From assembly GCA_030704615.1 (NCBI GenBank), contig CM060731.1:51770001-51834000 (forward strand): a DNA stretch of 64,000 nt, in the 5' to 3' direction. This DNA is from Takakia lepidozioides. Its lineage: Eukaryota > Plantae > Bryophyta. Within the stretch, counting starts at the first letter, position 1. Every line of letters begins with the position of its first letter. The notes under the pieces were generated by a model, which was given only the letters and a program-made list of their open reading frames with translations, did no database searches and had not been told where the DNA came from. Below are positions 2,862-61,400 of the stretch, one piece after another. The translations under genes and the position numbers were made by a program.

Positions 2862-2902
<41 letters not shown>

Positions 2903-25800: not shown

Positions 25801-26282
25801 ATTGGTCTAGTAGCAAATAACTTTATCAATTCACGAATGGTCCCTCTCAACCCTGAAGCCACTTCCGGAGCAAACCAGTCAAGTCGAAACTGCACCTCCA
25901 AAGTATCACAAATGAGTAACATTGATAATATGGTATGTATAGTGGCCGTAGATTGTACTCTTACGTGTTTTTTGAAGTTTACAAATGCAACATCATGAAC
26001 AGTCTGCATGTACAGCTGAAAATGGTTGAAAGGATCAAAGACTTACCACCTCACCAATATTTGTGGATGTCAAGCTTATGGGCACATCTTCCACAAATAT
26101 TTCAATGTAGTACAGGAATAAACGTCCACAGTCAAATCCATTTTCTTGCTGAGGAACTTTTACTCTGATTGTAATAGCATCTTTGGGTGAAGTGTTGTGA
26201 GCATCATGACACTTGTAGTTGGATGCTTCCCACTCAGCAATAAAGATCTTACAAGAGACAACATGGTCAAATCAGAATGTGG

Positions 26283-26470
26283 TGTCGTGCGCATACATAT
26301 CGCTACACAACTACATTGTTGTCCAAAACCACACAACACATGTGCACACCACACACTAGTATACCACTAGTCCACCACTAGTCCAGCCACTAGTCCAATC
26401 ACTAGGCTACAACTAGTCAGTCACTAGGCTGCCACTATGCTGCCCACTATGGCAGTCACTAGTCCACACA
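26283..26470 (-). repeat. Terminal repeat block Y, outer copy (188 bp)
   Basis: Near-identical to 26801-26976 apart from one extra 12-bp CCACTAGT-type unit and a few substitutions; TG...CA bounded. Confidence 0.92.
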
Positions 26471-26471
26471 A

Positions 26472-26798
26472 TGATAAAGAGGAAGAATACAAGCACAAGT
26501 TCATGCGAGCTCACAAAGCTGAAGCATAAACTCATGCATATATAACCTCATCACTCAAATACAAGTCAAGCCAAGTGCACCCCACGCCATGGGGAATCCA
26601 CACTACGGCGCCATAGCTAGGCGCGGTGAGGCTCAACTCGAGAAAGATGAGCCTCCCGCGCTTGCCGTGAAGATAACCACTCTAGGACCTAAATCTGTCT
26701 TGATCCCTGGATTGACACTTGGGCCAATCCCAAATGTCAATATGTAAAAGCTAGCTATTTCATAGCTAGTTTCACACTAGTGGTAAAATAACTTGACA
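26472..26798 (-). repeat. Terminal repeat block X, 3' copy (327 bp)
   Basis: Matches 36912-37237 with about 14 substitutions and one 1-bp indel (manual count); TG...CA bounded. Confidence 0.93.
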
Positions 26799-26800
26799 GC

Positions 26801-26976
26801 TGTCGTGCGCATACATATCGCTACACAACTACATCGCTGTCCAAAACCACACAACACATGTGCACACCACACACTAGTATACCACTAGTCCACCACTAGT
26901 CCAACCACTAGGCTACAACTAGTCAGTCACTAGGCTGTCACTATGCTGCCCACTATGGCAGTCACTAGTCCACACA
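26801..26976 (-). repeat. Terminal repeat block Y, inner copy (176 bp), abutting the PPT
   Basis: Direct repeat of 26283-26470, joined to X through GACA-GC-TGTC. Confidence 0.92.
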
Positions 26977-26987
26977 ATCGCCCCCCT
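26977..26987 (-). other. Polypurine tract (plus-strand primer)
   Basis: Minus strand AGGGGGGCGAT immediately precedes the TGTGTGG start of block Y. Confidence 0.8.
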
Positions 26988-27236
26988 AGCTAGTGCTTAG
27001 GTCTCTCTAAGTTCAGGTAGCCACAAGATGTGATAGTTACCATAGTCTCACTAAGTCCTCCACCACTATCCCTACTACACTCAAACTCGATAGATCAAGA
27101 GGCCGGGTGCAAGAGTTGCCCCATCGTTAGTCGCCGTCTTGCAACCTGTGAACTTAAGCCTGGGATCTCGTGTATTGACTCCTATGAGCTTGGCCTCCCA
27201 TGTCTTGTTAGCTGCCTCTAGTCATGTCCACTGCCA

Positions 27237-27380
27237 CTATCCCAAGCAGTGTGGACATAACCAATCTCCATCAGGAACCCTCTCAAGATGTGGTGTCAAG
27301 CATCCCACATGCCAACCTCTTGAGCATCGATCACACACCAGCATGGTGGCTGCCCCTTTGGCAGACCCACAAAGCATGCA
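27237..27380 (-). pseudogene. PHD finger at the C-terminus of the retroelement integrase
   Basis: CMLC-x11-CDRC-x4-HVGC-x14-CPHC (C4HC3) with the conserved W (DWLC), in frame with the integrase tail FSPGDYVYL. Confidence 0.9.
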
Positions 27381-28565
27381 CCTCAAACCTGCAGGTACCA
27401 CTGCCAAGTTTGGGTCAACTCTACCATCGACATTGGGAAGGTGACATGGTGCACAATTACGCACATGGTCTTTCCAAGTCATGCCATCCCGACCCTCCAA
27501 GATTAGGACTCCTAAGGGCAACACCTCTCGAACCCTCAGAATAACACGCCCTGCAGTAACATCCAGGGTCGTATGAGCAGTCTGCTGCAAATAAACATAG
27601 TCACCAGGGCTAAACCTCCGAACCCCAAGACGATATCCTCCACCACGTATAGTGGCATACCTCAACGTATCACGGTGCTCTGTAATGGCAAGGTTCTCAA
27701 AAGCCATGGGCATGACTTTCTTGAACAACTCTGCACGCTGACCACATGCACGTACTCATACGTCCGGATCGTCAAGGTTAAGGACTTGAGCAGTGTCCCT
27801 ACAAATGGCTGCAGGCAAATCCGGCTCTCGGCCAAAGAGAAGGAAATATGGTGAGAAGGAGGCAAATGATGCTTGTTTGCTGAACCTGTAGCCCATGGCT
27901 AACCAAGGCACCTGGAGATCCCAATCTCCTAGGTGTCCTTTCTGCAAACCATACTTGCGCAAACCCCTCTTCACCGTCTGAACAACTCTCTCTGCCAAGC
28001 CATCGGCCTCAGGATGATCCCGAGAAGTGGTGCGGTGGTCTATCAAGGCTTTATCACAAAGCCTGAAACTCCCCCAAGAACTCTCTCCCTTGGTCCGTGA
28101 GTACCTCAGCTGGAGCACCGAATCGGCTAAGCACACGATCCAAGAATGCATACGCAGCCCCCTCACTAGCTTGTCAGCAATGGAACCAACTCAGCACTTG
28201 GAGAAGTGCTCCACCATCGCCAACACATATCTGTGGTGGCGCATAGTCAGTGGCAACGGTCCTGCAAAGTCAAGACTCCACCTGTAGCCCAACCCCATGA
28301 TTGGTAAATGATGCAACTGTGGTGTAGGGGCGTTGAATGAAGCACGCACCCTGTCACACACCATGCACCTAGCCACGAACTGTTGCACCTCTGTATGCAT
28401 TCCACGCCACCAATACTGCCCCTGTAGTAAACTGTGAGTGCGTCGCACTCCAAAATGCCCCAACTCCTCATGGGCATGCCGCCCTAACCGTGCACGCTGT
28501 GTGGGGTGAGGCACAATCCTCACCCGACCATCCTCCCATACTCGGAGCAGGTGTATCCCCCCCAC
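27381..28565 (-). pseudogene. DDE integrase (frameshifted)
   Basis: HHCC (HEELGHFG...CMVC), D in SLDFAGP, D in VLTDQGREF (alternate frame ~28090-28105), E in GLAERVVQ, SPYFLLFGREP. Confidence 0.92.
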
Positions 28566-28853
28566 TTGAACCTCTTGGCTCGTTGCAGGATCCGATCCCT
28601 CTCCTTGGCAGTCATAGTGGCTACTGTGTCTCCAATGCGGAGGTAGTCCAACACAGCCGAATCCTCATGTATATCTCTGGTACCACCTGGCTCATCACTA
28701 GCCTCAGGGTCCTCTCAACACTCCGTCTACAGTCATCCCTGTTGTAGGTCCAATCTGACCTCCCGATGCCAAGATACATAAAAAGGCAGATGCATGCCAT
28801 CCCGACACCATCTCCTTGTCCGTCTCACCATGCCACCGAGCTCCAGTGTCATC

Positions 28854-30323
28854 CTATTGGCTCGTGCATGGATTGCGACTCAATCCATCCGCATCCCGAT
28901 TGACCCAACCCGGTCGATGCACAACCTGAAAGTCATACTCCTGGATTATGAGTGCCCACCGTGCAAGCTTCCCCGTAAGCTTGTTTGACTCCATCAACCA
29001 CTTGAGTGGCTGGTGATCCATGACAAGGGTGAAGAGATTGCCGTATAGATAGCACCTGAAATGTGTCACGGCCCACACCACAGCTAAGCACTCTCCCTCA
29101 TATGAGCTGTACTTAGCCTCTGCAGCGTTATTCGAGCGGCTAACATAAGCCACTACGAACTCTCTTCCCTCATCATCCACCTGAGTGAGCACCGCTCCAA
29201 GCCCCAGCATGCTCAAATCCGTATGCAGCTGAAAGGGACGCCCCCTGATAGGTCGTCTCAGGATAGGCGCCGAGGTCAACTTTGCCTTGAGCTCTTGAAA
29301 AGCTCGTTCCTGCTCATCTTCCCACTGCCACTCCAAGTCCACCTTGAGCCTTTGCAATGGCACTAAATCCCTTGACAAACCGTCTATAATAGTTTGTCAA
29401 TCCCATGAAAGCTCGAACTCGGCTCACATCTGTGGGGCATGGAATTTGTGCAATGGCCTCTACCTTAGTTTGCTGTACCCCCAATCCTCCAGGATATATC
29501 ATGTGACCCAGATACTCAATCTGGTTGTGGAAAAACTTACACTTCCCCGGATGCAACTTCAATCCGTGCGCTCAATACCACCTGAAGGTGTCTCTCATGC
29601 TCCTATCGTAGCACAAAGATGATGATGTCATCTATGTAGCACCGAGCAAAGTCCACCCCTGCTAGAATCCTATCCATGACTCTCTGAAACTCTGCAGGAG
29701 CGTTCTTAAGCCCAAATGGTAAGAACCGCCACTGATATAGGCAATCCTTGCCGTGCTCATTGATCCCCCAGAATGTCGTCTTCTGCTTGTCCGCCTCCTT
29801 GATGGCAACTGGTGATATCCAGATCGTAAATCCAAAGTGCTAAAGACCTTAGCATGCCCGATGGCATCAAAGATCTCCTCTGGTGTTGGCATGGCATACT
29901 TATCGGACTTGGTCTGACGATTTACAGGCCGTAATCACCGCACATACGTCTCTCCGTCCAATTGCCATAGACATCCTTCTTGGCTGGCATCACTGTGGCT
30001 GAAGCATACTCTCCACCAGAGAGCTCCACCAAACCTGCCTCCCAGAGATCTTGAGTCCTCATCTGAATCAAAGACCTCTCCATGTCATTGTATCTATAGG
30101 GTCTCCGAAAGATTGGCGTGTCAGTGGCCAACTCAATACGAATCTCTTGACCCTTCAGTGCTCCCAAGTCCTTCAAACTGAAGGCAAAACAATTCTTGTA
30201 AGCCCTCAGGAACCGCCGTATACATCGTCTTTCTCCTCCGGTGACAATGGGTCCAATGTCAGGCTCCCAATTGTCCTCCGTAACTGCAACCTTAAGTTCA
30301 GTGGGCTTAGAGGTAGAGGACAC
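28854..30323 (-). pseudogene. Reverse transcriptase and RNase H (frameshifted)
   Basis: RMCGDY, FSTLDLRSGYHQ, FARCYIDDIIIF (~29620-29650), KCKF...YLGH, then RNase H motifs LHTD, YSSYEGECLAVVWA, DHQPL, DADGLSR. Confidence 0.95.
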
Positions 30324-30629
30324 GTCCAGTGGTTGCTATGTTGCAACCTCTTGAGCAGTACTCCTGCCTGCTCAGTCAATGACAAGGCCTCATCTGCCCC
30401 ATCATCTCATCCTGAGGACTTCCTCAACCCGAGAAGAAAAATCCCCAACCTCATCCATCACAGCCGCCTTTCTGCCAACTCCCTCTGAACCTCGAGCTTC
30501 CTCGTGTGCCATGGATGCACCCCGTGGTCCTCTCATGCTCGCCCCCACTCACTGCTTGTACCGTCTCGGTAGGCAAAGAGACCATTGAGGGAAGTGTATT
30601 CCGCACTCTGCGTTGCTCAGCCATAGCCA

Positions 30630-31570
30630 AGCTGATAATCCAGGTCAAGCAATTGAGATCCATTGCTTGCCCCAACACTTGACGACGTGATGCCTCAGAA
30701 AGAGACGCACGCCGTGGTACCAGTGGTAAAACCATTGCCCGCTCACGCTCGTCAGCATTAGGCTCCACTAACTGTTGCAACTGAGCATCCCACAGGAGGC
30801 CAGGTCCACTATCCCGGAAAGCATGCGATCCTGGGAAGCTGAGCAGTGTAGGTAATGCTGCTCGTGGTTGACCACCTTGTTGACCACTGCCAAAGGCGAA
30901 CGGTCATTGTGTCTCACACGCTGAGACTGCCTCCCTGTGTCCAAAATGCTATCCAGGTGTGCTGGCCGCTGCACCCCATCAAATGCACGCTTGAGCAGTG
31001 CGGGTGGCATCAAGTTAGTCCACCATAGCCGTGGACGATGAGCCCGTGACCCCACTGTAGCTGCATCTAGCAACACTGCTGACCCAAGCCACGACCGGAC
31101 TTGATGCACACTGGCCATCACCCTGGCCCGAGAATCGCCCATCAGTGGCACATTCTCCAAGATGTATGCTGGAGATACAGCTTGATGAAGCTGCAAGTGG
31201 CGCAAAACCCGCACCATCTCCCAAAACAGACCGACCTTGAGTCTCGCAATCCATTGCCATGCCCGGCTGATGAATGCCCTTGGCAGGGCCAACCTGCCAC
31301 TACCAAATCAATGGAGCCAACCCGCTCCAAATCCTGCGCCCCAAACGAAATGTCTGCTGGCAAGGCCTGCTGATATCCACGAATTGCAGACATCGGCAAC
31401 AACTCAGGGTACTGCTGCACCAACTGAGCAACATGGCGAAGTGAAATGCGTCGTGCAGTCTCATCCCTCTCCACATACAAGTAACGCCGAACTCGTAAAC
31501 CTGCCTGTAACACAACAGCCAATCCGGTGCTGATCCCGCCAAACAAGTCCAGAAGACAAATGCCTTCATC
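30630..31570 (-). pseudogene. C5-cytosine DNA methyltransferase catalytic domain (DNMT3-like motif layout) inside pol
   Basis: Motif I LLDLFGG (~31535-31555), motif II YVERD, motif IV DLVVAGWPCQG (~31278-31310), LFWEMVRVL, motif VI ILENV (~31150), motif VIII AHRPRLWWTN (~31013-31042), motif IX ERERAM, motif X RRQVLGQAMD (~30660). Spread over three frames. Confidence 0.9.
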
Positions 31571-31959
31571 CGATACTGCCACACAATAGGTGTGGTGTCC
31601 AATGGAGACAACTGAGGTGGTCCTGGTGCAATCCCCACACTCTCCTCCTCTCCTGACGGTACAAAAGCCTCCACCCAGGCTTGTTGCACGTCGATCAGCA
31701 ACCCGCTGCAAATCCTTGCTCGTGCCCCACAATGGAGTCTGAGCAACCATGGCAGGCAACTCCGCCATACCATACATGTCATCCTGCTCTCCCGGAGGTG
31801 GCATCCTCTGAATGAGCATTGCCCTCAAGCAACTCTCTAGGCCAACTCACTGCCGCTGTGAATGCTGCTAGTGTCGGCATCTTGCCTCGCTGGGCAACCG
31901 CAACTCCTCCTATGAACGTCACAGGAGCTGCACACGCCCTCCCCTGACTGCCATGCAGG

Positions 31960-32290
31960 CCTATAGGAAGCTGAATCCTCCCAAAAATCCAGGGTGAAGC
32001 CCATGGGGTACAACACTGCCCCAACCAGGACATCGTATGAGACCGCGTCTGTCACAATGGCCTTGGCTCGCATCACTGAGCCATCTGTAGGGTGATCCGG
32101 CCGTAGTCTGATAGCCAACTCACGCCCGTGTCATGCCCCGAGCCTGCTCCGATCCTCCCAGAGACGTCTGTATCTAAAAAGGACAAGGCTCCATATCCGC
32201 CTCCGTGAGGCCCAAGCCTGCAATAGCAGCTCTGCCCAGCATCAATGGTTGAGCTCCGAGTCCAACAAGACCGCAGTGGCCGTACCTCTT
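31960..32290 (-). pseudogene. Retroviral-type aspartic protease (frameshifted)
   Basis: AVLLDS(G)AQPLMLG can be restored with a 1-nt insertion at ~32256; YDVLVG closes the domain at ~32030. Confidence 0.7.
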
Positions 32291-32899
32291 GCCTGCGGTC
32301 CACTCAAACAGAAAATGTCATCCTGGTTGTCTAACATGACAACTCCAGGTGTCACCATGGCGCGCTCAATGGCTGGCCTAGCTGGCAGCTCCATCAACCT
32401 GGCAGCTGCAGCTTGCCATGGCGCCGCCGTGGCAGTCTTGACCCTCAAATCCGAGGATCCCTCCGGCACTACACCTCCCACTATCTCCGCAGAAGATGAA
32501 GTAACCTCCCCTCTCACAGAGTGTAGCTGCCAGCCTGAACACCTCAGCTGGTCTTACCCCCGGCGTCGCAATCATGGTAGCCGAGAACAATGGAGCCTGC
32601 ACACAGATGTGGCCGCTCCCAGCAGCACACTAGCTGCCGTAGCCTTGGCAACACTAGGTAGTGGTGCTACCCGTGTAGCTCTCCCCAATGCATAGTAACC
32701 TCCGCCTCGGTAACAGTCGGGCGAGAGAACTAGGTGCCATGGATGGCGTCGACACTGTCTCCGCCAATGTGAATGACTGAGGAAGCCTAGCCTGACGGCT
32801 TGCCTCCCACGCGTGAATCCAACTCCACCTGCACCTCGTGGCTCAGGAACTCGTGTTGCTCCTCGAGTCACGGCTGCAGCAGACTCCACCTGCACTAGT

Positions 32900-34453
32900 G
32901 GTAGTGCTGCTCCCACACATGAATCCCATGCCTCCCATATCTCCTCCCTCAGGAGCAGGAGGTGGACCATCCGGCCTTAGAGCCGGTACCACCTGAGCTG
33001 TAGCCATGGCAGCGAGCCTCTGCTCTAGATGCTGAAGCCGGTTGGCCATGCCTTGGTCAACACCCTGACCTCCGCGTCCTTGGCCATGTTGAGCTTGCCC
33101 TTGGCCTACACCCCGTGCCTGGCCACCTCGTCCTCTTTGGGCTGCTCCCCTCGCCCCCGGCCACCATTGTTCCCTTGGAACTGGCCTGGGCGCAACTCGG
33201 GATGCAAACCATAACACTGGGCCTCTCCATGACCGTGCTTGCCACAATGCCCACACTGCAACTGTGCAGGCTGTGCATGTGCCGGCCCTTTGCCTCCCTC
33301 TGGACAATCCTTCTTGACGTGGGGTCCTCCACATGTCCAACACACCACATCCGCCCGTTGTTGGCCTGCAAATGAAGGGAGAGACCCCTGCATCTGAGGT
33401 CCTCTCTGCCCTTCCCTGAGCTTCACCTGAGCCCCCTTGTTGCCTTGAGCACGTTGAGGTAGTGGTTGGCTAGGAGCACCACTACCCCGTGGTGTCTCCT
33501 TAGCGAATCCCACCATGACCACTCGTTCCTCCACCATGTTGAGCTCTATCCGCTCTGCCAGCAAAAACACATTTGCTAAGGTAGGTTGGGCCGCTTGTAG
33601 GAGAGTTACATCCCGCACCCTTCTCCTCAGCTCCTTGTCCAATATCCCATACCAGAATTGGACTGCCTGAGCTTCCGTACCCCCTTGGGTTACATTTATC
33701 AAGCGCCTCATACGAGTGAAAGCCTCCCTCAAGCTCTCAGTCGGCTTCCGTTGGAACTCTTGCAAGCTCTGCAACTTCTCTGTCCTCACCCCTTGATAGT
33801 TCCCTCTTAACTCTTCAAAGAACTCCACAACAGGGTTGAAGGCAGGCACCGCCGCTGGTGCTGGTGCAGCAGTAGCTTGGGTGGACGTTGTAGCTACGGT
33901 ATCACCAGTCCCACTAGTCCCACTGCTGCTTGCTGAAGCTGCCGGTGCAGCGGCAGGTGTAGCCACTGCCCTCGTGGCTCTAGTGCCCTAGTGATGGAGA
34001 CATAGTCGGGTGACCAGTACATCCTCCACTCCTCGATCTCAACCTCATGCCCCCGCCTGAACTCATGGTAATCATCCATAGGCAACCCCTCAAGGTGCTG
34101 AAACAGCCCCTTCCATGCCATGAAAGGCGTAAATAGTTGTGGATTGCGCATTTGCTACAAACACACCAACTATCAAACTCTTGGATAAAATCATCCAACT
34201 CGATGGTGCCCACTTCCCCAGAGTACCTTTGTGGCCCCTTGGTAGCTCCATAGATCTCCTCCATTGTGTCCCACAACAATGGCAAAGAAACAACTTGCAC
34301 CGCCGGTGTGAGTCCTCCTGATTCACAATCCGAATCAGAACCTTCCGTAGAAGACACAAGAGGTGAAGGTGGCCTAAACCGCACACCTCGTCTCGTGTAC
34401 CCACTAGTACTGCTAGTGCTCGAACCGGCACTGTCCCCAGCAACTAGTGGCAC
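32900..34453 (-). pseudogene. Gag with two zinc-knuckle-like motifs (frameshifted)
   Basis: YSGEVGTIELDDFIQEFDSW, FQRKPTESLREAFTRM, CWTCGGPHVKKDC and CGHCGKHGHGEAQC. Confidence 0.85.
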
Positions 34454-35204
34454 CTCCGTGTTGACAAACTGTCACTCAATCGGTCATGAACATGTCCCTA
34501 ACCCCCTCTCCACAAGGTAACTGGGTAGAGAACCTGTTGCGGCTTATGGTTTGGAATATTAGGTTCCTAACACAGCCTACACCTGCACCTGCATCCACCG
34601 CAAACACTCCTATGGTTCGCTGGTCATCACCTCCAACCTCACCATAGGAGAAACAATGATGGTCTGACTGGTCATCACCCCAGCCTCACCATCGACAGCA
34701 TGCTCTAGGACTGGCCGGTGATCAAATCCAGACCAATCACCTATAAAAACAAGCGTCCACACAAAACTAATATGGCGCACAGTCAAGCATGCAGGTATGG
34801 AGGGGATCCAAATACAAGAAATCAGAACGACAACTCCCCCATACCAAAACAACTCCACGGTGTTGTTCCTGCAAGGATACCCCAGCCCAAACCTGGACTG
34901 ATTCTTGCCTCCACCTACGGAAAGGTCTTGGCCTAATAATAGGGTGGAAAACTACGAGGAAGATAAGCTAAAGCAATGCCTAACCCCAACATGCCCTCAT
35001 CCCAACACTCTTTTTCTCCTCTCTTTCCTCACTTGCATGACCATGGAAATATCATGAAGATACTCCTCAAACCGCCCTCCACGAGCTTCAAAATTTGGCC
35101 TTCAAGACATGCTAGTCCTTAGGCAGTCCACCAGTGCCTCCACGAGTCAGCACAGGCCGTCCACAGATCAACACGGGCCACCACAGACCAGCACAAGCCC
35201 ACAC

Positions 35205-35470
35205 ACATCACTGGTCACAGCCGTCACAGCCCGTCACAGCCCCAAAAGCCACAGGTCACAGCTTGTCACAACCCCTCACAGCCCTACACAGGTCACAGGG
35301 GTCACAACCCCAAAGGCCACAACCTATCACAGCCCGTCACAGCCCTACACAGGTCAGAGGGGTCACAGTTCCACAGGCCATAGGGCACAGCCTGTCACAG
35401 CCCCTCACAGCCCCTCACAGCCCCACAGGCTATAGGGCACAACCTGTCACAGCCCCTCACAGCCCCATCC
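35205..35470 (+). repeat. TCACAGCC-type minisatellite in the retroelement 5' leader
   Basis: Many GTCACAGCC/CCTCACAGCC units read directly. Confidence 0.85.
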
Positions 35471-36895
35471 GTGGCCACTCATGGCAGTTTAGCCATTTCT
35501 CCAAGGGGTTTAGCCACGCCAAGCTAGGGTTTGTGTCTCTTGGACTCTAGGCTTCTTTGCACCAAGCTATGGCGGCTGTGAGAATCAGCAAGGTATTCTT
35601 GCTCTTTCGGCTCCCACACACCACCAATAGTAGCCCTAAGCCATGAGGAAGATGGTTGCCACAAACCAAGCCTTCTTTCTCACTTAGACTCCCCAAACAC
35701 GCCACTAAACTCAATGGCAAACAACCAAGCCTTGCTGGTTTCCAGCCCTTGTGAGCACTCATTCAAGTGTTTTCCTTGGCCATAACATCTGTTTTAGAGC
35801 CTATTCCAGCCCCTACATCTGCCACTTCAAGAGCCATGCTCTATCTAGGCTTGAGGTTGAAACCCCAACTAAGAACACGCTCTACAAGTGTCGGACTGTC
35901 ACATAAGAGCAGATCAGCCCCTTACCTTCTCTTCTAGTTCTCTAAAGCTTGAAAACAAAAGCCCAATGGACTGAAGGCATGCTCCACATATGCCCCACTC
36001 TCACCACAAGAGAATCAGCCCCTTTGCTTCTTTTCTTGCACCCACCAACCTGAAAATACAAGCCTTCAACAGGCTGAAAACATGCTCCACCCATGCATTG
36101 CCCTCACATAAGGGAAGTCAGCCCTTCCTTCTTCCTTGCTTGCCCTCCAAGCTTGAAGATGGAAGCTTCAATGAGCTGAATACATGCTCCACACATGCAA
36201 CCTCTTCACACAAGAGGTATCAGCCCTATCTTGGCTCCTTGGCTCATTGATGCTCTCTAAGACAAGACTAAGCACTCCACAACCTTTGCCAAGCTCCTGA
36301 AAACCTAAGGCTTACATTTCCAGCCACAAGGCACTCCTCTTGTGGTGCAAGTGCTCTTCTTCCAAGCTCTGAAACCCTAGGTGCACATTCCATTGTTTTG
36401 CCGCACCTCTTAGCTCCTTTTCCAGCCCTGCTCTTGCTATGACAAGAGCCCTCTCAATGCTGAAGCTCGAGATTGAAACCCAAACTCAACATACTCCACA
36501 AAGTGCACTGATTTGCCCCAAGCCAAATCAGCCCTTTCGTTTGGTCTTGCAATCCTTCACACAATGAAAGCTCGCATTCCCAAGGCTAGTTCTCAGATTT
36601 GCCACCAAAGCCACTATAACGTGCTCTTGACTGGTCCTCTTCCCAATCGTGCTTGCTCATGCATGCACACAATCTGAAACCATCAAGGTGCTCTGGAATT
36701 ACCTGCAGCATGGTGCTTTCATCTCTGAAGCTGAAGATCGAATGCCAAGGTCTACCACCTCGTAACCCACATCGCCTCCGCTTCTAACAACCAAGAGCTC
36801 CATGGTGCTCCTTGCATAACAACCTAGTTTCTCTTATTCTCAAGCAAAAACCACAAGTGCTACAACTAACTCGTATCTGGCACTCACAGATACGA

Positions 36896-36911
36896 GCTCA
36901 TCTTTCTCGAG
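36896..36911 (-). other. Primer-binding-site position occupied by a 16-nt complement of the terminal repeat (putative self-priming site)
   Basis: 36896-36911 GCTCATCTTTCTCGAG is the exact reverse complement of 37077-37092 CTCGAGAAAGATGAGC. No TGG tRNA-type PBS. Confidence 0.75.
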
Positions 36912-37237
36912 TGATAAAGATGAAGAATACAAGCACAATCTCATGCGAGCTCACAAAGCTGAAGCATAAACTCATGCATATATAACCTCATCACTCAAAT
37001 ACAAGTCAAGCCAAGTGCACCCCACGCCATGGGCAATCCACACTACGGCGCCATAGCTAGGTGCGGTGAGGCTCAACTCGAGAAAGATGAGCCTCTTGCG
37101 CTTGCCGTGAAGATAACCACTCCAGGGCCTAAATCTGCCTTGACCCCTGGATTGACACTTGGGCCAATCCCAATGTCAATATATAAAAGCTAGCTATTTC
37201 CTAGTTAGTTTCACACTAGTGGTAAAATAACTTGACA
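36912..37237 (-). repeat. Terminal repeat block X, 5' copy (326 bp)
   Basis: Direct repeat of 26472-26798, flanked outside by the GTGG duplication and not by block Y. Confidence 0.93.
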
Positions 37238-38179
37238 GTGGAAACAAAAGTCAATTCCATAACGGACATAGAATTTGACAAGGTATTCAGATTTCCTGAC
37301 CCCTTGAATACATCAAAGATTGGCTTGTTGTCATGCCCGTGCTTGAGTGAATCCAAGTGCAAGATGAATCTTGTCTCCGTAGGTTGAATGATTGCCAAGC
37401 TCCAATGGAAGTTGCCACGAATGGGACAAAAATGTATTGTTTTGAAAATATATCAATGTTTTTCGTCCACTTCCTCAACTTTCCAAAGTTTGACTCATCC
37501 AGCTTGTTTGCTCTTTCATAAAAGAAGTTATTAAAAAAGAGAAATCTTTGTTCACCTTCCACTGTCCCGCTCTAGATGTGCCTGCATGTGCATACCAAAA
37601 GTTTAAAAGAAAAATTCAAAGCTTGATGCAAATGACATGAATAAAAGAAGTTGAATGTCCATACTTGGATGTAGAATTCTATGATGATGTTGTTCAAGAA
37701 AGTGGCAGGATTCAACGTCTGTATGTCAAATATCGTGATCTCCAATGCTTCATCTCACTTAACCAGCCCACCATGTGAGCAACTCTTTGCTTTTGTTGGT
37801 GACCTTGTTATTGTTGAATCTTCATGTGGTCTTCTTATTGTTGAGTCTTGACCTGTCACACAGTGGCCTATAGGTCATCAGTAAGGACCAAAATATTGCA
37901 CGTACATGCTTGGACAACTTCCATCTTGAAGCACATTATAGGAAATAGCTCATGTAGTTTTTTATCAAGCATCACTATTTAGGCTCGTTCAACAACATCC
38001 AAACTATGTAAAGCCAATATGGGGTCTTACCATTTTTCATTTCTGACTCCATTGATGTTCCTTCATTTTTCAACTCCACTGCGGTCTCATGATATAGACC
38101 TTGTTCCAGATTTGTACCACCTTTGTCATCCAAGTTGACAAACACGGTACTGGGGCCAATTTCTTGGTCCATGGCGCAA

Positions 38180-39964: not shown

Positions 39965-41460
39965 GAATTGGCGGTTGATTATTTATTTTAAAAATTAACC
40001 GACCGCCAATTTGTAATAGTGTTTTTTGTAATAGTGTGTATTTGTTTTTCCATTTTTTATTAAATTTTAAACAGCAACCGCCATTTTGGCGGTTGCTTAT
40101 TTTCTTAAAAAAAAAACAATTATGGCGGTCGCTTGATTCTTAAAATTAAGACAAAACGACCCCAAAGTTTCAGTTTTTTTTTATTGTTTTACTTTTATTT
40201 TTTCCTGTTTCTGGGTTAAACTTTTACCAGCGACTGCCAATCTGGCGGTCGCTTTGTTTTCTTTTTTAAAAACACAATTAAGCGACCACCAGATTGGCGG
40301 TCGCTTACTTTCTTTCTTTTTTAAAAGAAGACCCCAAAATTTGTAGGTTTTTTTGTTTTTTTTTGTTTTTCTGTATTTGGGTTAAACTTTTACCAGAGAC
40401 CGCCATTCTGGCAGTCGCTTTATTTTCTTTTCTTAAGGAACTATTAAGCGACCACCTGATTGGCGGTCGCTTAATTTCTTAAAATAAATTAAACCCACCG
40501 CCAATTTTGCAGTAGTTTTCTTTATTGTTTTTTGGGTTAAATTTTAAACAGCGACGGCCATTTTGGCGGTCACTTTATTTTCTTTATGTTTAAAAATAGT
40601 AAACGACTGCCAGATTGGCGGTCGCTTACACATTTAAAATTAAAACAAAACCACCACAGATTTTTCAGTTTTTTGTTAAAGTTTTTTTTTAAATAAAAAA
40701 ATAAAAAACTTTTCGGTGAAACTTTAACCAGCGACCGCCAATCTGGCAGTTGCTTTATATATTGCTTTTAAAGAAGTATTAAGCGACCACCAGATTGGCG
40801 GTCGCTTAATTTTTAAAAATAAAAAATAACGACCGCCAATTTTGCAGTAGTTTGTTTTTCTTTTCTTTTGGGTTAAATTTTAAACAGTTACCGCCATTTT
40901 GGCTGTAACTTTATTTTTTCTTATTTAAAAATATTAAGCAACCGCCAGATTGACGCTCACTTAATTCTTAAAGTTAAAACAAAATGACCACAAAATTTTC
41001 GGTTTTTTTCTTTTTTACTTCCGCCCCCCCCTGTTTCTGGGTTAAACTTTAACCAGCGACCGCCAATCTGGCGGTTGCTTTCTCTTCTTTTTTAAAAGAA
41101 ATATTAAGCGACCACCAGATTGGCGGTCCCTTAACTTTTAGCAATGACCACAAATTTGGCAGTCACTTCAATTGTTTAAATACAAAAAACAGTTGGCAGT
41201 CGCTTCAGTTTTAAATAAAACAAAGCAGCGACCGCCAATTTGGCGGTCGTTTTATTTTCATTTTTCAAGAAAATTAAGCGACCACCAATTTCACGGTCGC
41301 TTTATTTTTATTTTTTAAGAAAATGAAGTGACCACCAATTTGGCGGTCGCTTCATTTAAAAAAATCCCAAAAGAAATAAGCAACCGCCAACATTGGCGGT
41401 CGCTTCATTTTTAAAAAAACCAAAAGAAATAAGCAACCGCCAACATTGGCGGTCGCACAT
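39965..41460. repeat. Array of about 20 or more palindromic GCGACCGCCAA-TTGGCGGTCGC units with A/T-tract spacers
   Basis: Core palindrome seen at e.g. 40230, 40282, 40448, 40730, 40783, 41056, 41228, 41433. Confidence 0.88.
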
Positions 41461-46984: not shown

Positions 46985-47600
46985 TTATACATTCACCACA
47001 TTCCAGATACACCAAGTGATAGTCTGTGTTGTATCCCGCTGCAATAGAGTATCGACCTCGTTGAAACTCATAGTGGCCTGGTGAATAAAGTTGTCACGCT
47101 TGGGATCACAAACCATCATCTTCAAAAATATGAAATACAAATGTTTGCAGGGTATGAATTTACCTCTTTTGCCCAAACTAGTTCAAAACATACCAACAAA
47201 ATCCTGACAGGTGCAATTGTGGAAATTGGAAATAATGATGTCGTACGCCCTGTCCTGCAGAGTAGATGTGGACGTGATCATTGTGTACACCCGACCATAC
47301 CCCGGATCGGGCACTTCCGTGGTACTTGCAACACGAGCTTGAAGCATTCTTGCGGACTCCACCTTGCTGAAATGTTCTGCAGTTGGAGGAAGCTGAACCA
47401 GCTTTCCATCCCGTTTTGTTGGCCACGAATGAGCATTTGCGGGAGGGACCCGAGAATTCGCGGAACTGGAAGCGCCACAACGCACATGGGGTTGCTTTGC
47501 AAGGGAGAAGCCGGCCTCCTCCAGCATTGCAATCTGTGTACAGATGGATTCTCATATGCCCATTCTTGAATTTCATTGCGATGATCATTGGCGATCATCG
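46985..47600 (-). pseudogene. SWIM zinc-finger ORF remnant, probably transposon-derived
   Basis: YDIIISNFHNCTCQDF, in-frame stop, then KFIPCKHLYFIF (CxC...CKH). Confidence 0.7.
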
Positions 47601-47644
47601 TATTTTCCTGTTGCCTGCAGTGACCATTTCCAACAGACAAAGCC

Positions 47645-48600
47645 TTTCCCCGGCAACGAAGTCAGTTTTTTTTTTTTTTTTTTCTCCAGTCAGTCTTATC
47701 CCTGCAAAGAAGTGATGATCGGCACCGATCATTACTTCCAGTGCTTCAAGATTTTGCAGACCAGCAACGAGGTCAGTTTTTTATTTTATTTTATTTATCG
47801 CAGTCAGTCTTATTCCTATGAAAAAGTGATGATCGGTACCGATCATCATTCACAGTGCTTCAAGATTTTGCAGACGGGCAACAAGGTCAGTTTGTTTTTT
47901 TTAATAAAATTTTTAAATTTTTTTTACCAATTAGTCTGCGAAAAAGTGATGATCGGCACCGATCATCACTTACAGTGCTTCAAGATTTTGCAGACCGGCA
48001 ACGAGGTTTTTTTTTTTTTTTTACCAGTCAGTCTTATTCCTGCGAAGAGTGATGATCGGCACCGATCATCACTTACAATGCTTCAAGATTTTGCAGACCG
48101 GCAACAAAGTTAGTTTTTTTATTTTCTTATTTTTTTCCCAGTTAGTCTTATTCCTGCAAAGAAGTGATGATCGGCACCGATCATCACTTACAGTGCTTCA
48201 AGATTTTGCAGAGTATTTTTCATTTCGGCCAGAAATGCGGTTCACATTGTTTTGCTTTCGTGTTCGAGTCCTGCATCTTTCCCCCATTGCAAAGTTAGTT
48301 GTACATCAAAACATGATCTTAGGGCTGGAAGGAAGTAATGATCGACACCGATCATCACTCAAACTGCTGTGTGCTTTTGCAACGAAATCTTCATTTCGTC
48401 CAGAAATGTGAATTGCATCGTTTTGCTTTCGTATTTCAATCCTATTTTTCCCCGATTGAAACTGAAATCTTCAAGAAAATATGATGATCGGCGGCGATCA
48501 TCACATTTAGACCTTCTTCAGGGTGATACTTGTGAGGTAGTAGAAAGCCCATCAGCAGTCACTCTCTGTAGGGAATGTGATGATCGCCGGCGATCATCAC
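47645..48600. repeat. Tandem ~105-120-bp units, each with the palindrome AGTGATGATCGG-CA-CCGATCATCACT
   Basis: Copies at ~47711, 47825, 47945, 48048, 48163; degenerate copies at ~48334, 48482, 48577; conserved GCTTCAAGATTTTGCAGA and variable T-tract spacers. Confidence 0.9.
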
Positions 48601-49825
48601 ATTCTCATGTTTTGTGAATTGACATGTTGGGAATTGCATTGGGTTTGCAAGTTCGCAGGTACACAAAATATGTGCTCATGGAGGGAAAACACTTGAGCGG
48701 TGTCCGTGATTATCTCGACATGTGGTCGGATCCTGCCAATGACCCAACCGTGTACGCAGCTGGGATTTTGAAGGACTGGAGTCCTGCCCATTTCAGGGAC
48801 TGCGGATGGTACCTGGACAGCCCTCCTGGCTCCAACGCTAGTGCTTGGTACCGTTGGAAAGCCCTCGATGAGGAGGGGTGCACCGGCTTGATCTCATGAT
48901 TTTTGGACCCGCGGTGTGGGAGATATGGAATTTCAAGTACTTTTGGTCTTTGGAAATTCGGGAAAAATAGCAAAGTGGGCTTTCCTGGAGCAATGATTGG
49001 CCCTTCATGGGGGAGATTTGGAATTTCAAGTACGTTTGGTCGCTGGAAATTCGCAAAAACATAGCAAAGTGGATATATCAATATATGAAGCCTCGACAAA
49101 AGATTGGGCATCAACGACGAGGAGCGAGCACGAGGACGAGGAGTCGTGAGGACAAAGAGTGCAACAAAACGAGGAAGGGCTTAGTGCATGTTAGGGCTTA
49201 GTGCATGAGGCGGAGAGAGAAAAACGAATGCAAAGAGATTTGATCCCGCGATGCCACGGCGGGCAGATAGAGTCCTTACATACAAACATCCTAAACCTAT
49301 CCCCCCCAAAACCTAATAGCCCACCTAATAAACCAATAATTAAACGACACGTGTCCCAGGTATTTATTAAGACCCTATTGGTAGTTGTAAAAAATAAATA
49401 AAAAGCTTCTATATTTCACATCCTATATTAATTTAAATTTTGCAACAAGATTTAATGGCACCTTATTTATTTGTAATTTTTTTTAAATAAATTTTATCTA
49501 CCTAGAATATATTGTACCCTATGTTTTTTTGCATGTATCTCCGGAATATTTGGAAGTGGCCTCCCCGAGGGTCGTGATTGCAACTGAGAGAAAAAACGCA
49601 GAAAGATATGTTTTGGTCCATGTATAGCTTACAACACCGATGCAATACACGATTGTAGCAAACAAGCTTCTCTATACATGGAAACGATTTGGTCTTCACC
49701 CCTTCCTACATCACTTGTTCATAGGTCTCCAAAGCCTCAAGCTCACACTTGCTGTGCATGCCTTTGGACAAGACTCTATAGGACTTCGACGAATTAGGCA
49801 AATAATGGCGCTGCTAATGAAGGTA

Positions 49826-52115: not shown

Positions 52116-53372
52116 CTTGAAATTCAATATCAAGTCCAAAAATTATGAAACTGCCTCAATGCACCCTTACTCGTCGAGGGCTTTCCAAGGGGAAGACAAT
52201 GTAGTAATTAGAGTACTAGCCAGTGGGACAAGGTTTCATGTTCACCGCGCAATATGAGATAAGTTTTGTACAACCAAGAAAAGTAGGATGTATGGTGAAC
52301 CTGAAACCATTGTAACCTTTAAAAGAGCTATGACCTTTGATCTTAAGGTAATTCACAGTTAATTCAGTTGGAAAAAAAGATGGTAGTAAAATTTCAATCA
52401 GGGCTTCCATCCCATGTTCCTTTAAAAAAACATTAAAAAAAAAAAAAGACTACTTGTGATTTTTGTATTCAATCGTCTCATTTGGGGTCACCTCTTTGTT
52501 TGTGTAAGCATGAAGCTTCTTCAATCTGAAAAATTCCACCTCTCTAGTTCATCAAGTTTGTCCACGGTGTACTCGATCATGTTGTGTTTTCTAATTTAGG
52601 TTTCATGACAATTTCCAAAGCCCTTTGGATTAGAGGATTGTTGACCTTCAAGTTCACAATACAAAGAAACAAGTTCAATGGAAACATTCAACTTCTAAAC
52701 AAACCTAGTTGGATATTTTTTGGCAATAGTCAAAAAATGAAAACTAGGTGTAAGTGGGTAGCTTTGTGAGTTCTAAGGCTATTCTTGGGCCCAATAATTG
52801 TGTCAAACAAGTTTTAAATGACTAAGATATGCCAACTAGACAATAAATAATTTAATATCATCATATCTCTTTTTTCAATAGATTGCATTGTGGTAGATGT
52901 GTTCATTACAATAATTTGAAATCTTGAAAATAGACGTTTATAATATACTAACTAATAAAATCTTTCATTATCGATAATGGGACCTACAAATGTTTAAAAA
53001 TAAGGGTTCTTGTAGCTACAAACAGAAAAACTTGTATTGATTAAATGTGCATGGTAACATAGGCATCGTAAGATGTAGAAGGTTAGATCGTGCGATAGAG
53101 AATTTTTTTAATCGTTGGATGTGTAAACATGTAACTGTTGGACTATAGCAATGGACTGCTGCAGTGGACCCGCATACACAAATGCTTTAAAGCAATCCAT
53201 CTGACGGCAATACGCTCTCTCACTGCTATTATCACTAACAAAAGGCTGCTTGAATCCAGTCTATCCGCTATCTCTTAGGTACCCCCGGGTACCCTTTCTC
53301 CTTTGGTTGCTGGGTGCCCCCCGGGCACCCTCTAGTTTCATAGGGCCCACCCCCGAAAGGGGGCAGTAGCCA

Positions 53373-53648
53373 GGGGCTGTGACAGGCTGTGGCGGGCTGT
53401 GAGAGGATGTGCCCTGTGACCCTCTGACCTGTGATAGGCTGTGGCTGTGACCCCTGTGACCTGTGTAGGGCTGTGACAGGCTGTGAGGGGCTGTGCCCTA
53501 TGGCCTGTGGGGCTGTGACGGGCTGTGACAGGCTGTGGCCTTTGGGGCTGTGACCCCTGTGACCTGTGTAGGGCTGTGACAGGCTATGATGGGCTGTGAG
53601 GGGCTGTGACAGGCTGTGCCCTGTGGCCTGTGGGGCTGTGACAGGCTT
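53373..53648 (-). repeat. TCACAGCC-type minisatellite, inverted relative to 35205-35470
   Basis: Shares higher-order strings such as CACAGCCCTACACAGGTCACAGGGGTCACA and CCCCAAAGGCCACA. Confidence 0.85.
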
Positions 53649-53729
53649 GTTTTATGAATTGTGCTGTTGCCGCTGTTGTCTCCAGTTGACCATCTACCCA
53701 CTTGTAGCCGCTGTGAGCTATTGAAGAAG

Positions 53730-55640
53730 GTGCCCCCTTCCCCCATCATTTGATCATAGGTCTCCATACCATGTCCCTGCTCTACATACCCTGCAAGCAT
53801 CGCGTTCCATGACACCACATCTCGTTCAACCATAGTGTTGAAAACTCCCTTCGCATCCTTAATGCACCCACATTTCGCATACATGTCCACCAGGGCAGTG
53901 TTCAGAATGACATCTGGTACAATTCCAGCTTTGATGATGTCACCATGGACCTCTTTCCCTTTTTCCAGAGGTCCCAGGCTTGCACACGCATTGCAAACAC
54001 AAACAAACGTGATGTGGTTGGGCTTCACCCCTTCGCACAACATTTGCTCATAGGTCTCCAAAGCATTCCTACCACACCCATGCTTGGTAAATCCTGCCAA
54101 CATTATATTCCACGTAATCAAAGATCATTGAGACTTTCTGTTGAAAACTTCGTGAGCATGCATGCATGATGCTCCTGCACTTAACATACATGTTTGCTCC
54201 TGCACCCACATTTTGCATACATGTCCACCAGGGTATTGTTCAAAATGACATTTGGTACAATTCCAGCCCTGATGATGTCGCCATGGACCTCTTTGCAAGC
54301 CCTTTTCCAGAGCTGCCATGGCTGTGTTCAGAATGACATTTGGTACAATTCCAGCTTTGATGATGTCACCATTCACCTCTTTGCCCTTTTCCAGGGCTGC
54401 CAAGCTTGCACAAGCATTGCGAGTGCACACAAACGTGATGTGGTCGGGCTTCACCCCTTCGCACATCATTTGCTCATACGTCTCCAAAGCCTCCATCCCG
54501 CGCCCCTGTTGTGCATTCACTGCGAGCATCGCACTCCACGACACCACATTTTGTTCAGCCATATTGTTGATCACTCCCTTTGCATCCTTGATGCTCCCAC
54601 ATTTGGCATACAAGTCCACCAGGGCAGTGTTCAGGATCACATCTGGTATGATTCCAGCTCTGACGATGTCGCCATGCATCTCTTTGCCCTTTTCCAGGGC
54701 TGCCAGGCTTGCACACGCACTGCAAACGCACACAAACGTGATGTGGTCGAGCTTCATCCCTTCACACATCATTTGCTCATACGTCTCCAAAGCCTCCATC
54801 CCGCGCCCCTGCTATGTATACCCTGCGAGCATCGCACTCCACGACACCACATTTCGTTCAGCCATATTGTTGAACACTCCCTTTGCATCCTCGATGCTCT
54901 CACATTTGGCATACATGTCCACCAGGGCAGTGTTCAGGATCACATCTGGTACGATTCCAGCTCTGACGATGTCACCATGCACCTCTTTGCCCTTTTCCAG
55001 GGCTGCCAGGCTTGCACACGCACTGCAAACGCACACAAATGTGATGTGGTCGGGCTTCACCCCTTCCCCCATCATTTGCTCATAGGTCTCCAAAGCATTC
55101 CTACCACACCCATGCTTGGTAAATCCTCCCAACATTATATTCCACGTGATCAAAGATCATTAAGGCATTCTGTTGAACACTTGGTGAGCATCCATGATGC
55201 TCCCGCACTTAACATACATGTTGACAAGGGTGTTGAGGAGAAAAACATTTGGCGTGAATCCACTTTGGATAATGTGAGTTTGCACCTGCTTTTCAGCTTC
55301 CAGGCCTTTCACCTTGATGCACTTATGCAAGAGACAGACATACGTATCTGAATCTGCTGAAATGCCTCCTTGGTTTAAAGTCTGTAGAGCCTTTGTCAGT
55401 CTGCTTGCCTCACAAAGCATCTTCACATGCCCATAAGTGCCAGAAGAGACATTATGGACTCCCTCTCTTGATCCGCTTCCAGAAGCTGTGGTCACGGTTC
55501 AGGTGCCTGGTTTTATCAACTGTGCCGCTGCAGCTGCTGCCTTCAGTTGACCATCTACCCATGCAGGTTTCTTGTGGCTATTGATCCACAGGGAATCATA
55601 GGTAATTTTGTGCTTGAAATCAGGCCCTCTTGGAAGAATC
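53730..55640 (-). pseudogene. PLS-class pentatricopeptide repeat pseudogene, no E/DYW tail visible
   Basis: Repeated NTALVDMYAKCG...A..VF..M...VVSW..M..G...G...ALETYEQM..EGVKPDHITFVCVCSACASLAALEKGKEVH; in-frame stops at 55160, 55157, 54812, 54125; disrupted near 54200-54320. Confidence 0.9.
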
Positions 55641-58099: not shown

Positions 58100-58442
58100 C
58101 GTATTTGCATTATATGTGCCTTCAAAACGACACGTGTAGTGATGTAGTCGTATAAATAGAGCTGTGAAACCATCTTCAGTCATGGAGTCATAAGATTCCA
58201 TGAAACGTCGTCCACGTGTAGTCAAACATATCACACTAGTCATATAAACCATCCCTGTCATCATGGTCAACAATGTTTGACCAATGCTCCCTAACTTTCC
58301 GGAGTCATGTAGTGATATCCATTACTACAAAGTCATAAAACTATGACTGCAATGCATTTCAGCGCTCTGTAGTCATCTACCTAGTGCAGTTTTTATGACT
58401 CCGCCAAAGCCGTAGTCCTAAAAACGCTCATCTCTTGTAGTG
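58100..58442 (-). mobile_element. Second CACTA element end, same family and orientation as the first
   Basis: Reverse complement begins CACTACAAGAGATGAGCGTTTTTAGGACT at 58442 (27/29 identical to the 51315 end); GTAGTC/AGTCAT subterminal repeats. Confidence 0.78.
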
Positions 58443-61400
58443 CCTGCCCCATGAGTGTTGGAATTTGCGGAAGATCCCAGGTCAGCGTCCGGATCCCTGC
58501 TGATGTCTGCAATCATTTTCACCCAAGCATTCCTTGCCTCAATTTGAACTTCATAAAAGATGGTGGCTAACAACACAAAGAGACATGTCTTTTCTCTACT
58601 CAGGGTCCAATTGCATCTGACCTTCCAGATGTTCCATAGTGTGATTGATCGGAACGCTTCAAAGACAGGAGAATGACTGTAGATCCTGTGAGACAAAATG
58701 TCATAGTTCAGCAGCTTTTGAATTGGGGATGGTGAGCCTGATTTCCAAGTGTTCATTATGGGGATGAGTCGAGACCAGGTTTTTGAAGGGATGCTACAGT
58801 GAAGGAGACAATGCTCCAGCGATTCCCCTATACCCAGGCTGCAGCATTTGCATATTAATGCCTCTGAAAAGGAAAGCCAAGCTCCCACCTTGAGAACCCG
58901 GTTTGCCATTTGCCATAGAAATGCAGCCACTTTTGCAGATCTGACCTTCTTCCAGATGTTGGCCCAGATAAGGTTCCATTTCGCGTGTTGGAGGCCCTGA
59001 CCTGCCCACTTGGAGGACCATTTGATCTGGAATTGGGGTGATTTAAGCAACGAGCGGTATGCTGCTTTGGCAGAATAATTAAAGAAGGAGGGACGGGAGG
59101 TGTCAAAGTTCCATGACCATTCTTTAGGGTCAATAGCCAGCCCCATGAGAGGACCTCCTTCCCCCAAAGGAACAAGTTTGAGGATAGCCAGGTAGCCGGT
59201 GACTGGTCAGGAGGCGCGGAAGGGTTCATGTCTTTGTCGGCAGATGACCAGTGGCATATTCTCACAGGGGTGAATTGCCCACCGGAGATTTGTATGGGAA
59301 ACAGGGAATAAAGCCTGAGATAGTTGGATAGATCCAACCTATTAAGAACCAGCCTCGAGAAATGGTCTGTTTTCGTATCCGTAATGTAAATGACCTGGTT
59401 TGGGGAATTGGAACAGGTGACCCAATTGCCAGGACTACCTTGATCTGGCCCTGAGATGAGAGCTTGTTTCCAAGTATCTGGAATCCTTTGCAGTAGCAGT
59501 TGGTAGCCCGATATGCCTCTTTGAATACCTACTATGTCATTGATTTGGTCTTGGGATAAGAAGGCCCGCCCACTCCAAATATCCTTTATCTGAGTGATGT
59601 GCAATCTATCCCAGGCTGAGAACCTTGCTGCAGAGGCTCTCTCAGATGCGGAAGGAGTGTTCGAGTTGAGGGTGAGATATTGGCGCATTGTTTCCTCATA
59701 ATTTTGCGGATCAGCTTTAACCAGGCGAGGTCTAATTAAGTTCCAGATTGCCCATATAGCTCTCCAAAGAGGTGAGCCCAAGGACTTGTGTTTAAATCCA
59801 TGTGTAATCCATCTCAATGATGGGTTCCACAGTTTAGATTTGAGAGAACTATTTAGGATGTGCCCATAAACTAGGTGCTTCCACCAGCCACCCTCTGGTC
59901 CCAACAATCTGACCATCCACTTGCCCAATAGAGCATAGAATTGGGTCCCCGGATCAATAACACCCAGGCCTCCCTTCTTCTTTGGAAGACATATCAGATA
60001 CAGTTGGTCTTGGGTTTTTGTCGCTGGAATCTGCCCTCCATATAAAGTTACAGATAGTTTTCTGAATCAGTTTGATTTGAGGAAAAGAGGGGCTCCAAAC
60101 AGAAGCAAAATACCAAATGCTGGCCAGAAGGATCTGGTTGGCAACCAGTGCCCTTCCGGTAATGGATAAATGGCGGGAACCCCAGTAGACTAATTTCTTT
60201 TGGAGCTTGGAGATGACATGGCCAAACCTTTGATCATCAGACAAGTTCACTCCGAAGGGATGCCCCAATAGTGTTGTGACCTCACCATTACCCAGCCATC
60301 TCAGGCCCATTTCTTGGCCCCAGTTTGGAGTCTGCCCTATGGGAGAGTTGTTTGTATCTCCAACTAAGATAGCTACCGTTTTTGACCAATTTACTTTGAA
60401 GCCTGAAGCCTCACAGAAGGTAGAGAGTGTGTTTGAAGCTTCCTGCAGGTTGCTTGCCGAGGCATGCAAGTAAAGTGCTGTATCATCAACAAACATTGAG
60501 TCTTTGATCTGCAGGTTGGGGTTTGTTTGGGTTTGAATTTTCAGCCCTGTTATGTTGGGGTTGTTGTCTAAATCCCAAGGAGTCAGCGACAATGAGGAAG
60601 AGGAATGGGGCCAGTGGACATCCCTGGCGGTCAAAGGGTTTGGAAATGAAGCCATTAAGCGAAACCCTACTGGAAGCGTTGAGTAGGAGGATCTTGACCC
60701 ATTGACAAAAATCCTGAGAGATCCCTGTCTTCTGGAGTGTGGCAAATAGCATTGGCCACTCAACCTTGTCAAAGGCTTTCTCAAAGTCCAAGAGGAGCAT
60801 GGCTATGGGCTGGCCAGTTGCCCCAGCAAAGATTGGCGTTTCTTGAGCAAGGAGAATGTTGTCCAAAATGTATCTGCCCCTAATGAAACCTGCTTCACCC
60901 GGTCTGATAATTGTTGGGAGGAGAGGCTGGAGGCGCAATGCCAGAGCCTTAGCAATAATCTTATAGGATACGTTGAGTAATGTAATTGGTCTATAGTTGG
61001 AGATGTCTTTCCTATCCCCTTTCTTGAAAAGCAGAGTTATAATGCCTTGAGACATCATCTGGGGCATGGAGCCCTTTTTTTTAATCTCATTTGCCATTAT
61101 GCAGAAGTCAGATGAAATAACCGACCAGAGAGCTTTGTAAAATTCTACTGGCATCCCATCAAAGCCTGGTGCCTTCCTATCTGACATGAGCTTAATTGTG
61201 AAGTCCAGTTCTGATTGGGTGAACTCCCCGTCCAATGAGGCAGAGTTGGGTAGGCCTAGCTTGGTTTGGTGACTTTGAAGACAGGTTCCCCTTGCAGCTC
61301 TGATACTTGGAGAATCATTTCTGCTTTTGAAGAGTGCATGGAAGTGTGAATGAGCTACAGATACCATGTTTCTGGGCTCTGAGGATACATGTCCTTGAGG

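Follow-up and report, generated by a model that had tools for sequence, protein, structure and literature searches.

This locus raises the question of how an LTR retrotransposon that has no recognisable tRNA primer-binding site (PBS) would prime its minus strand. In the window, by which we mean the whole 64,000-nt stretch of Takakia lepidozioides DNA analysed here, 16 nt lying directly inside a terminal block designated X had been described in an initial annotation as the perfect complement of a segment within that block and read as a signature of self-priming. Direct comparison confirmed that 36896-36911, which adjoins block X (36912-37237) on its internal side, is the exact reverse complement of 37077-37092. 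Judged from sequence, this match at the PBS position is very likely the self-priming duplex of the element, with a predicted transcript start at about A37088 and a primer of 12 nt. Self-priming itself is already known, as are the element clade and its split layout; a literature search returned no paper reporting priming in this clade of Gypsy elements with PHD and DNMT domains, the REM1 paper, Craig's thesis and subscription papers being outside its reach.

The match belongs to a decayed Ty3/gypsy element on the minus strand (26283-37237), flanked on both sides by the 4-bp target-site duplication (TSD) GTGG (Table 1). Its layout is X1 (326 bp), PBS, a leader of ~2.4 kb, gag, DNMT, RT, RNase H, integrase, PHD, polypurine tract, Y1, X2 and Y2, giving the domain order gag-DNMT-RT-RH-IN-PHD in broken reading frames, and all four terminal blocks are bounded by TG...CA. 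The best PDB match was Ty3. Identity as a DIRS/Ngaro tyrosine-recombinase element was ruled out by the H2C2 integrase and the 4-bp TSD, and the element lacks the TGG-initiated PBS that marks LTR elements primed by a tRNA 3′ end. The insertion interrupts a Ulp1 (Peptidase_C48)-like frame, whose parts at 26035-26271 and 37287-37571 match successive stretches of the profile and which probably belongs to a DNA transposon. The family of the window element is very abundant in the host reads.

Several other repeats were observed in the same DNA. The leader contains a satellite of 10-bp units (35221-35465), which recurs inverted 18 kb away at 53364-53647, a recurrence that suggests a fragment of a related element there, and degenerate tandem repeats of ~100 bp each (35899-36230). 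Beyond the element, stop-interrupted PPR-repeat frames in 303-bp units occupy 53498-55351, a plant L1-type element lies in fragments at 58418-61448 (RVT_1, zf-RVT), and short palindromic units resembling the subterminal repeats of DNA transposons are arrayed in both orientations at 40039-41445 and 47575-48603.

Table 1. Features of the decayed Ty3/gypsy element and its insertion site (window coordinates).
Feature	Position	Strand	Remarks
Block X1, 5′ terminal repeat with promoter slot, R and U5; 326 bp, TG...CA	36912-37237	−	
Primer-binding site, 12-nt core right behind the terminal CA of block X	36900-36911	−	Complementarity runs on to 36896 here
Predicted self-primer, 12 nt, from A37088 after a C	37077-37088	−	Homologous TATA spacing in families B, C and D; complement reaches 37092
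TATA slot in block X, degenerate in the window family (TTATCTT)	37110-37116	−	28 nt before A37088
Hairpin behind the PBS core	36868-36898	−	Watson-Crick stem of 10 bp at 36870-36896, which can grow to 12 bp
gag, frameshift-broken, zinc-knuckle-like motifs	33106-34154	−	Weak Retrotrans_gag match, E 0.006, below the Pfam cut-off
C5 cytosine methyltransferase domain within pol, frameshifted	30768-31846	−	PF00145, E 9e-5; collinear with liverwort protein P0018
Reverse transcriptase (fragmented) and RNase H	28854-30335	−	
Integrase: H2C2 zinc finger, stop-containing core, PHD finger at end	27237-28664	−	
Polypurine tract ahead of block Y1	26977-26990	−	
Block Y1, 176 bp, TG...CA	26801-26976	−	
Palindromic Y1/X2 joint: CA, 2-nt spacer GC (26799-26800), TG	26794-26805	unstranded	
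Block X2, 327 bp, primer segment intact	26472-26798	−	95% identical to X1
Block Y2, 188 bp, 3′ end of the element	26283-26470	−	
TSD GTGG, left copy	26279-26282	+	
TSD GTGG, right copy	37238-37241	+	

The complementarity lengthens to 17 bp (36896-36912 with 37076-37092) when the terminal A of block X is included. Anchored complements in 5000 dinucleotide shuffles of X had a mean of 3.6 and a maximum of 9 nt, none reaching the 16 nt found. Other perfect inverted 16-mers 50-400 nt apart were present in the 64 kb only in two repeat arrays, one around 40.6-41.1 kb and one around 48.5 kb. The region 36860-37100 folded with a z-score of -6.2, no shuffle out of 200 being as stable, and in the predicted ensemble the three LTR-proximal pairs of the duplex formed only ~40% of the time. 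No Rfam match at E≤10 was obtained within 36500-37400. A chance inverted repeat, or the remnant of an old insertion, might be expected in so repeat-rich a window; the shuffles speak against it, as does the conservation of the position with changed sequence in three other families. With the covariation described below this reading is already refuted, and we give it next to no weight. The earlier observation that a TGG-initiated tRNA PBS is absent also held, TGG being missing from the first 40 nt after X, and no tRNA gene was found in the 64-kb window (ARAGORN) or in the 40 scanned of 80 relative loci.

The RNase H of the element had 405 homologues at E≤0.001 among 1256 candidates. Those named among the best 120 came from liverworts (up to 81%), Klebsormidium (51-63% identity for the proteins among the listed homologues) and Closterium, many of them with a PHD and some with a DNMT domain. 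From 497 confirmed relatives 80 loci were kept, and the 5′ end could be read in four families, for which we coined the labels A (the window element), B (L005, L007, L021, L031 and the identical L022 and L023), C (L053, L057, L058, L076) and D (L008, with X taken from L030). Four copies, the window element, L005, L023 and L076, show the complete X-internal-Y-X-Y layout, and every one of them has a 4-bp TSD. In RNase H the B and D loci are 72-78% and the C loci 55-59% identical to the window element, and the X blocks of the other families gave no blastn match better than E 0.02.

The initial annotation had proposed looking for compensatory changes between the two complementary segments, and these are evident: pairing is kept in B, C and D although the PBS differs at 5-7 of 11 positions (5, 6, 7, 6, 6 and 6 differences in the six pairwise comparisons of A-D). 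Within an independent 3′ X from the same family the PBS finds 16 (A), 11 (B), 15 (C) or 14 (D) complementary bases, against only 3-6 in the X of other families. The register is identical in all four, the terminal A of the LTR pairing with the T that follows the primer segment. Pairs were counted by a script anchored on the LTR end, the alignment A3 misregistering the PBS between families A and B. That each PBS matches only its own LTR, in three families besides that of the window, supports the self-priming reading.

Thirteen distinct 5′ X copies were compared. Six pair in cis, namely the window element (12/12), L022=L023 (11/11), L031 (11/11), L076 (13/14), L053 (12/14) and L057 (13/14 plus one G-U), and one pairs only with the X of another locus (L008 with L030). 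Four retain the PBS with deletions in the primer segment (L005, L007, L021, L058), and L024 and L034 have no PBS after X. All core mismatches in the compared copies are G>A or C>T, which we infer to be the pattern of methylation decay. In family B the primer segment is one arm of a small palindrome, and the PBS of the copies with deletions pairs with other X copies at 10/11, 10/11 and 11/11 positions; deletion of these primer segments by decay or misassembly is plausible. As a separate observation, in L023 (~1832-1858) and other B X blocks the predicted start falls within a loop closed by a palindrome of 10 bp, the upstream arm of which is identical to the PBS, and the deletions of L005, L007 and L021 are at that palindrome. 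In L024 a 333-bp direct repeat after X (2016-3168) replaces the PBS, and the locus looks rearranged. When 26 upstream regions were scanned without bias for perfect matches of 11 nt behind a CA, the window element, L022, L023 and L031 were recovered, while family C was missed because of single mismatches; the match of L031 by itself was reached in 7 of 5000 shuffles. Matches of 11-13 nt in seven other loci of that scan were set aside as chance, none lying at a known X end.

These families also bear on whether a host tRNA half or another cellular RNA might be the primer, the LTR complement being merely a regulatory stem. Half-tRNA priming is known in plant copia lineages, the only elements for which its use is reported in PMC6317226. 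The site has no TGG, and four families whose four PBS sequences track their own LTRs would need four unrelated primers. We therefore regard an external primer as highly improbable, and self-priming as the better account of the site.

The transcript start had been placed near 37092, inside X, and the relatives favour the second part of that claim. A TATA word stands at -31 in four of five family B copies (it is mutated in the fifth), at -31 or -32 in all five family C copies and at -31 in the one copy of D. In these three families it always precedes a pyrimidine-A step, and that A opens the stretch of conserved pairing, which is 11 nt long in B and 14 nt in C. With TATA 31-32 nt upstream of the pairing segment, the promoter is best placed inside X, and Y would not be needed for transcription. 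The first varying PBS base lies just beyond the core, at position 12 in B, 15-16 in C and 13 in the window family. The window base homologous to the start of B, C and D is A37088, giving 12 nt, so that a primer of 12 nt is more likely than one of 16 and A37088 a likelier start than 37092.

Variation within the window family was read from contigs of sequencing runs, of which X1 and X2 represent one sample that may be the source of the window. The only common PBS variant among those listed is 36899 C>G, which makes up 22% of the contig depth summed for X1 and 17% of that for X2; it lies just outside the 12-nt core and has no partner change listed at 37089, and no common variant is listed inside 36900-36911 in X2. 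In run X7 one whole-stretch contig carries an uncompensated core change at 36908, and in run X12 two divergent contigs are changed at 37085 or 37086. A canonical TATA is missing from the slot in the window family, where a degenerate word stands at -28; both X copies have another TATA-like word, located 104 nt downstream from where the primer starts. The word TATATATT at -97 was rejected as a promoter, being found only in the window's 5′ X and representing a minority form (37183 A>G, 74% in run X1). Contigs from RNA-labelled runs, which are represented by contigs only, span the predicted start, as the 3′ X copy would equally give.

Self-priming from 37092 with a 16-nt primer draws on several of these data: in X1 and X2 alike the 16 pairs are without a mismatch, family D keeps 14 pairs and L022/L023 keep 16, past the core, and no common variant is listed at 37089-37092. 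Yet pair 13 (36899) varies uncompensated at 17-22%, the homologous start of B, C and D maps to A37088, 37092 is a G preceded by a G with just 24 nt between it and the TATA slot, and pairs 14-16 compete with the neighbouring hairpin. A start at 37092 thus appears unlikely, and the 12-nt primer from A37088 is preferred.

That hairpin, a 10-bp stem at 36870-36896 with a 7-nt loop, is present as the initial annotation had claimed. It has base 36896 in common with the 16-mer and can be extended to 12 bp using 36897-36898, so that hairpin and 16-nt duplex compete unless the duplex is limited to 12-13 bp; with a start at 37088, a 12-bp duplex and a 12-bp hairpin fit side by side and leave 36899 unpaired. 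The window-family hairpin has a z-score of -3.1, 3 of 200 shuffles being as good. At its pair 36879/36887 both sides are changed in one contig of run X7, changes stand at 16% and 15% in run X1 and only one side is changed in run X8, and a minor subfamily altered at 36876, 36891 and 36892 would break three pairs. Family D has two hairpins at this place (z -4.2). For B and C a conserved hairpin was rejected (five sequences, z -1.5 to +0.8), and since these families do without it the hairpin drops out of the self-priming signature to which it had been assigned; it is a family-level add-on.

For the window element we infer the start site, the RNase H cut and the priming as follows. The RNA would start inside block X at about A37088, and bases 1-12 of it would anneal to 36900-36911. 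Cleavage by RNase H behind base 12 would leave the primer, whose extension would begin at X's terminal A. The further pairs 13-16 probably arose secondarily, from transcripts that began several bases upstream and a primer that was then copied into the PBS; such copying would account for the covariation as well as for the longer matches met now and then (16 in the window and L022/L023, 14 in D). Block Y would be dispensable at the 5′ end because promoter, R and U5 all lie in X. The earlier suggestion that a start inside X explains a 5′ end working without Y thus holds as far as the tolerated loss of Y is concerned, though not as an account of how the layout arises. In L044 (3701-3878) the 3′ X2 is followed by the PBS and then by an inverted upstream half of X that stops at TGACA; this fold-back, seen in one contig, is a possible fossil of a copied, unremoved primer with its 5′ tail, or a misassembly.

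The stem might instead control RNA processing, hiding a poly(A) signal of the 5′ repeat or acting in packaging, with priming achieved otherwise. It forms only in the 5′ context, as a processing switch would require. Against this, the X blocks of A-D hold no AATAAA-type word, no other primer site is visible, and in each of the four families the stem meets the end of the LTR with single-base precision; priming requires such a fit, whereas a processing switch could do without it. This alternative is accordingly very doubtful, and self-priming remains the reading followed here.

The proposed scheme resembles that of Tf1, in which, as reported in PMC7175516, the RNA's first 11 bases anneal to the PBS and RNase H cleaves between bases 11 and 12; the cores in the families described here measure 11, 11, 12 and 14 nt. 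About half of Tf1 cDNA is reported to end, on the 3′ side, in a retained PBS that has been copied into DNA (PMC11042837). A PBS adjoining the 5′ LTR that can pair with the element's own transcript at its predicted 5′ end is likewise found in Tf1/Tf2 (Schizosaccharomyces pombe), Tj1, Tosmo1-3 and the Tf1/sushi group including plant Tcn1. Among plant elements self-priming has been predicted for 12%, in Tcn1 and TAR (PMC6317226), and a Selaginella Tcn1 is reported to show no evidence of it (PMC2864245). The TAR-lineage Ty1/copia elements Houba and Osr-1 are also predicted self-primers, although as copia elements with ordinary LTRs they differ from the present one (PMC6317226).

Membership of the Tf1/sushi group, to which the initial annotation had appealed, was not borne out. 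Elements of that group are described as chromoviruses with a three-duplex 'pretzel' (bioRxiv 10.1101/2022.12.06.519325), whereas the window element has a PHD-ended integrase, a DNMT domain, permuted repeats and a 4-bp TSD. No chromodomain was detected by Pfam in the last ORF (PHD E 2e-10), in the best 120 homologues listed or in six that were rescanned, and in a search for Tf1-type flanking duplexes the best duplex that each PBS-flanking 20-mer forms with the LTR exceeded shuffles in none of 12 tests (z of -1.9 at the strongest, 16/300). The element does resemble KnitGypsy-Dnmt3 of Klebsormidium nitens, described as having DIRS-like A-coding-B-A-B repeats with Gypsy domains (de Mendoza 2018, PMC5890265), which shares with the window element both that repeat order and a DNMT inside a Gypsy pol. 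The main text of that paper contains no match for 'primer binding' or 'PHD', and the section consulted gives no mechanism of priming or integration. A PHD finger within a Gypsy polyprotein is also reported for Chlamydomonas elements (Gypsy-7a_cRei, REM1), Gypsy-7a_cRei being drawn with LTR sub-parts (PMC9940879).

How the split layout arises may be read from the joints between blocks. The Y|X joint is palindromic in the window and in 19 other distinct loci, across repeats that cannot otherwise be aligned. Its spacer is 2 nt in all 20 distinct joints (GC 10, AC 4, GT 3, AT 2, TC 1), AC, GT and AT (9/20) being C>T/G>A decay forms of GC; duplicate loci were counted once, and of the two search patterns one required 2 nt and the other allowed 0-4. 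The X2|Y2 joints are heterogeneous: L005 has a filler there, and L052, L055 and L068 have bases resembling the PBS. The conserved Y|X palindrome together with the ragged X|Y joints suggests that a linear cDNA is joined end to end and opened at the palindrome. The self-primer would stay on the cDNA, the ragged ends of a linear Y-X-internal-Y-X copy would be joined, and the integrase would open the circle at the CA-GC-TG palindrome between Y and X, yielding X-internal-Y-X-Y with a 4-bp TSD. The L044 fold-back stops exactly at the palindrome cut, though misassembly may account for it. Counting against the circle, the other single-cut product, with Y before the 5′ X, was seen in none of 12 distinct 5′ X copies. 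Elements of the form X-internal-Y with no second X occur with a 4-bp TSD in L021, L031 and L034 and without a TSD in L057; they could be double cuts, products of Y-Y recombination or assembly collapse, and by the model they would be unable to make the first strand transfer. Integration through an obligatory circle in this clade is accordingly put forward as a tentative idea, somewhat less probable than its negation. A precedent is foamy virus, whose integrase is reported to cleave the palindromic LTR-LTR junctions of 2-LTR circles (PMC1180852); that junction and Y|X are both palindromic CA/TG joints between terminal blocks. For ordinary LTRs such cleavage is a side path or disputed, while here it would be the route by which the standard integrated form arises.

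Search programs for LTR elements that insist on a tRNA PBS and on two LTRs enclosed by a TSD will overlook this very abundant family. If the interpretation is right, the Y|X palindrome would offer an example from nature of a 2-LTR-circle junction serving as the normal integrase substrate, and the DIRS-like repeats of KnitGypsy-Dnmt3, reported without a mechanism, would gain a testable replication scheme. Priming without tRNA would then extend to a Gypsy clade with PHD and DNMT domains that is widespread among non-seed plants and streptophyte algae. As that clade is without the chromodomain and the pretzel fold, self-priming would need only a duplex of 11-14 bp, and would either have arisen again or predate its assumed age.
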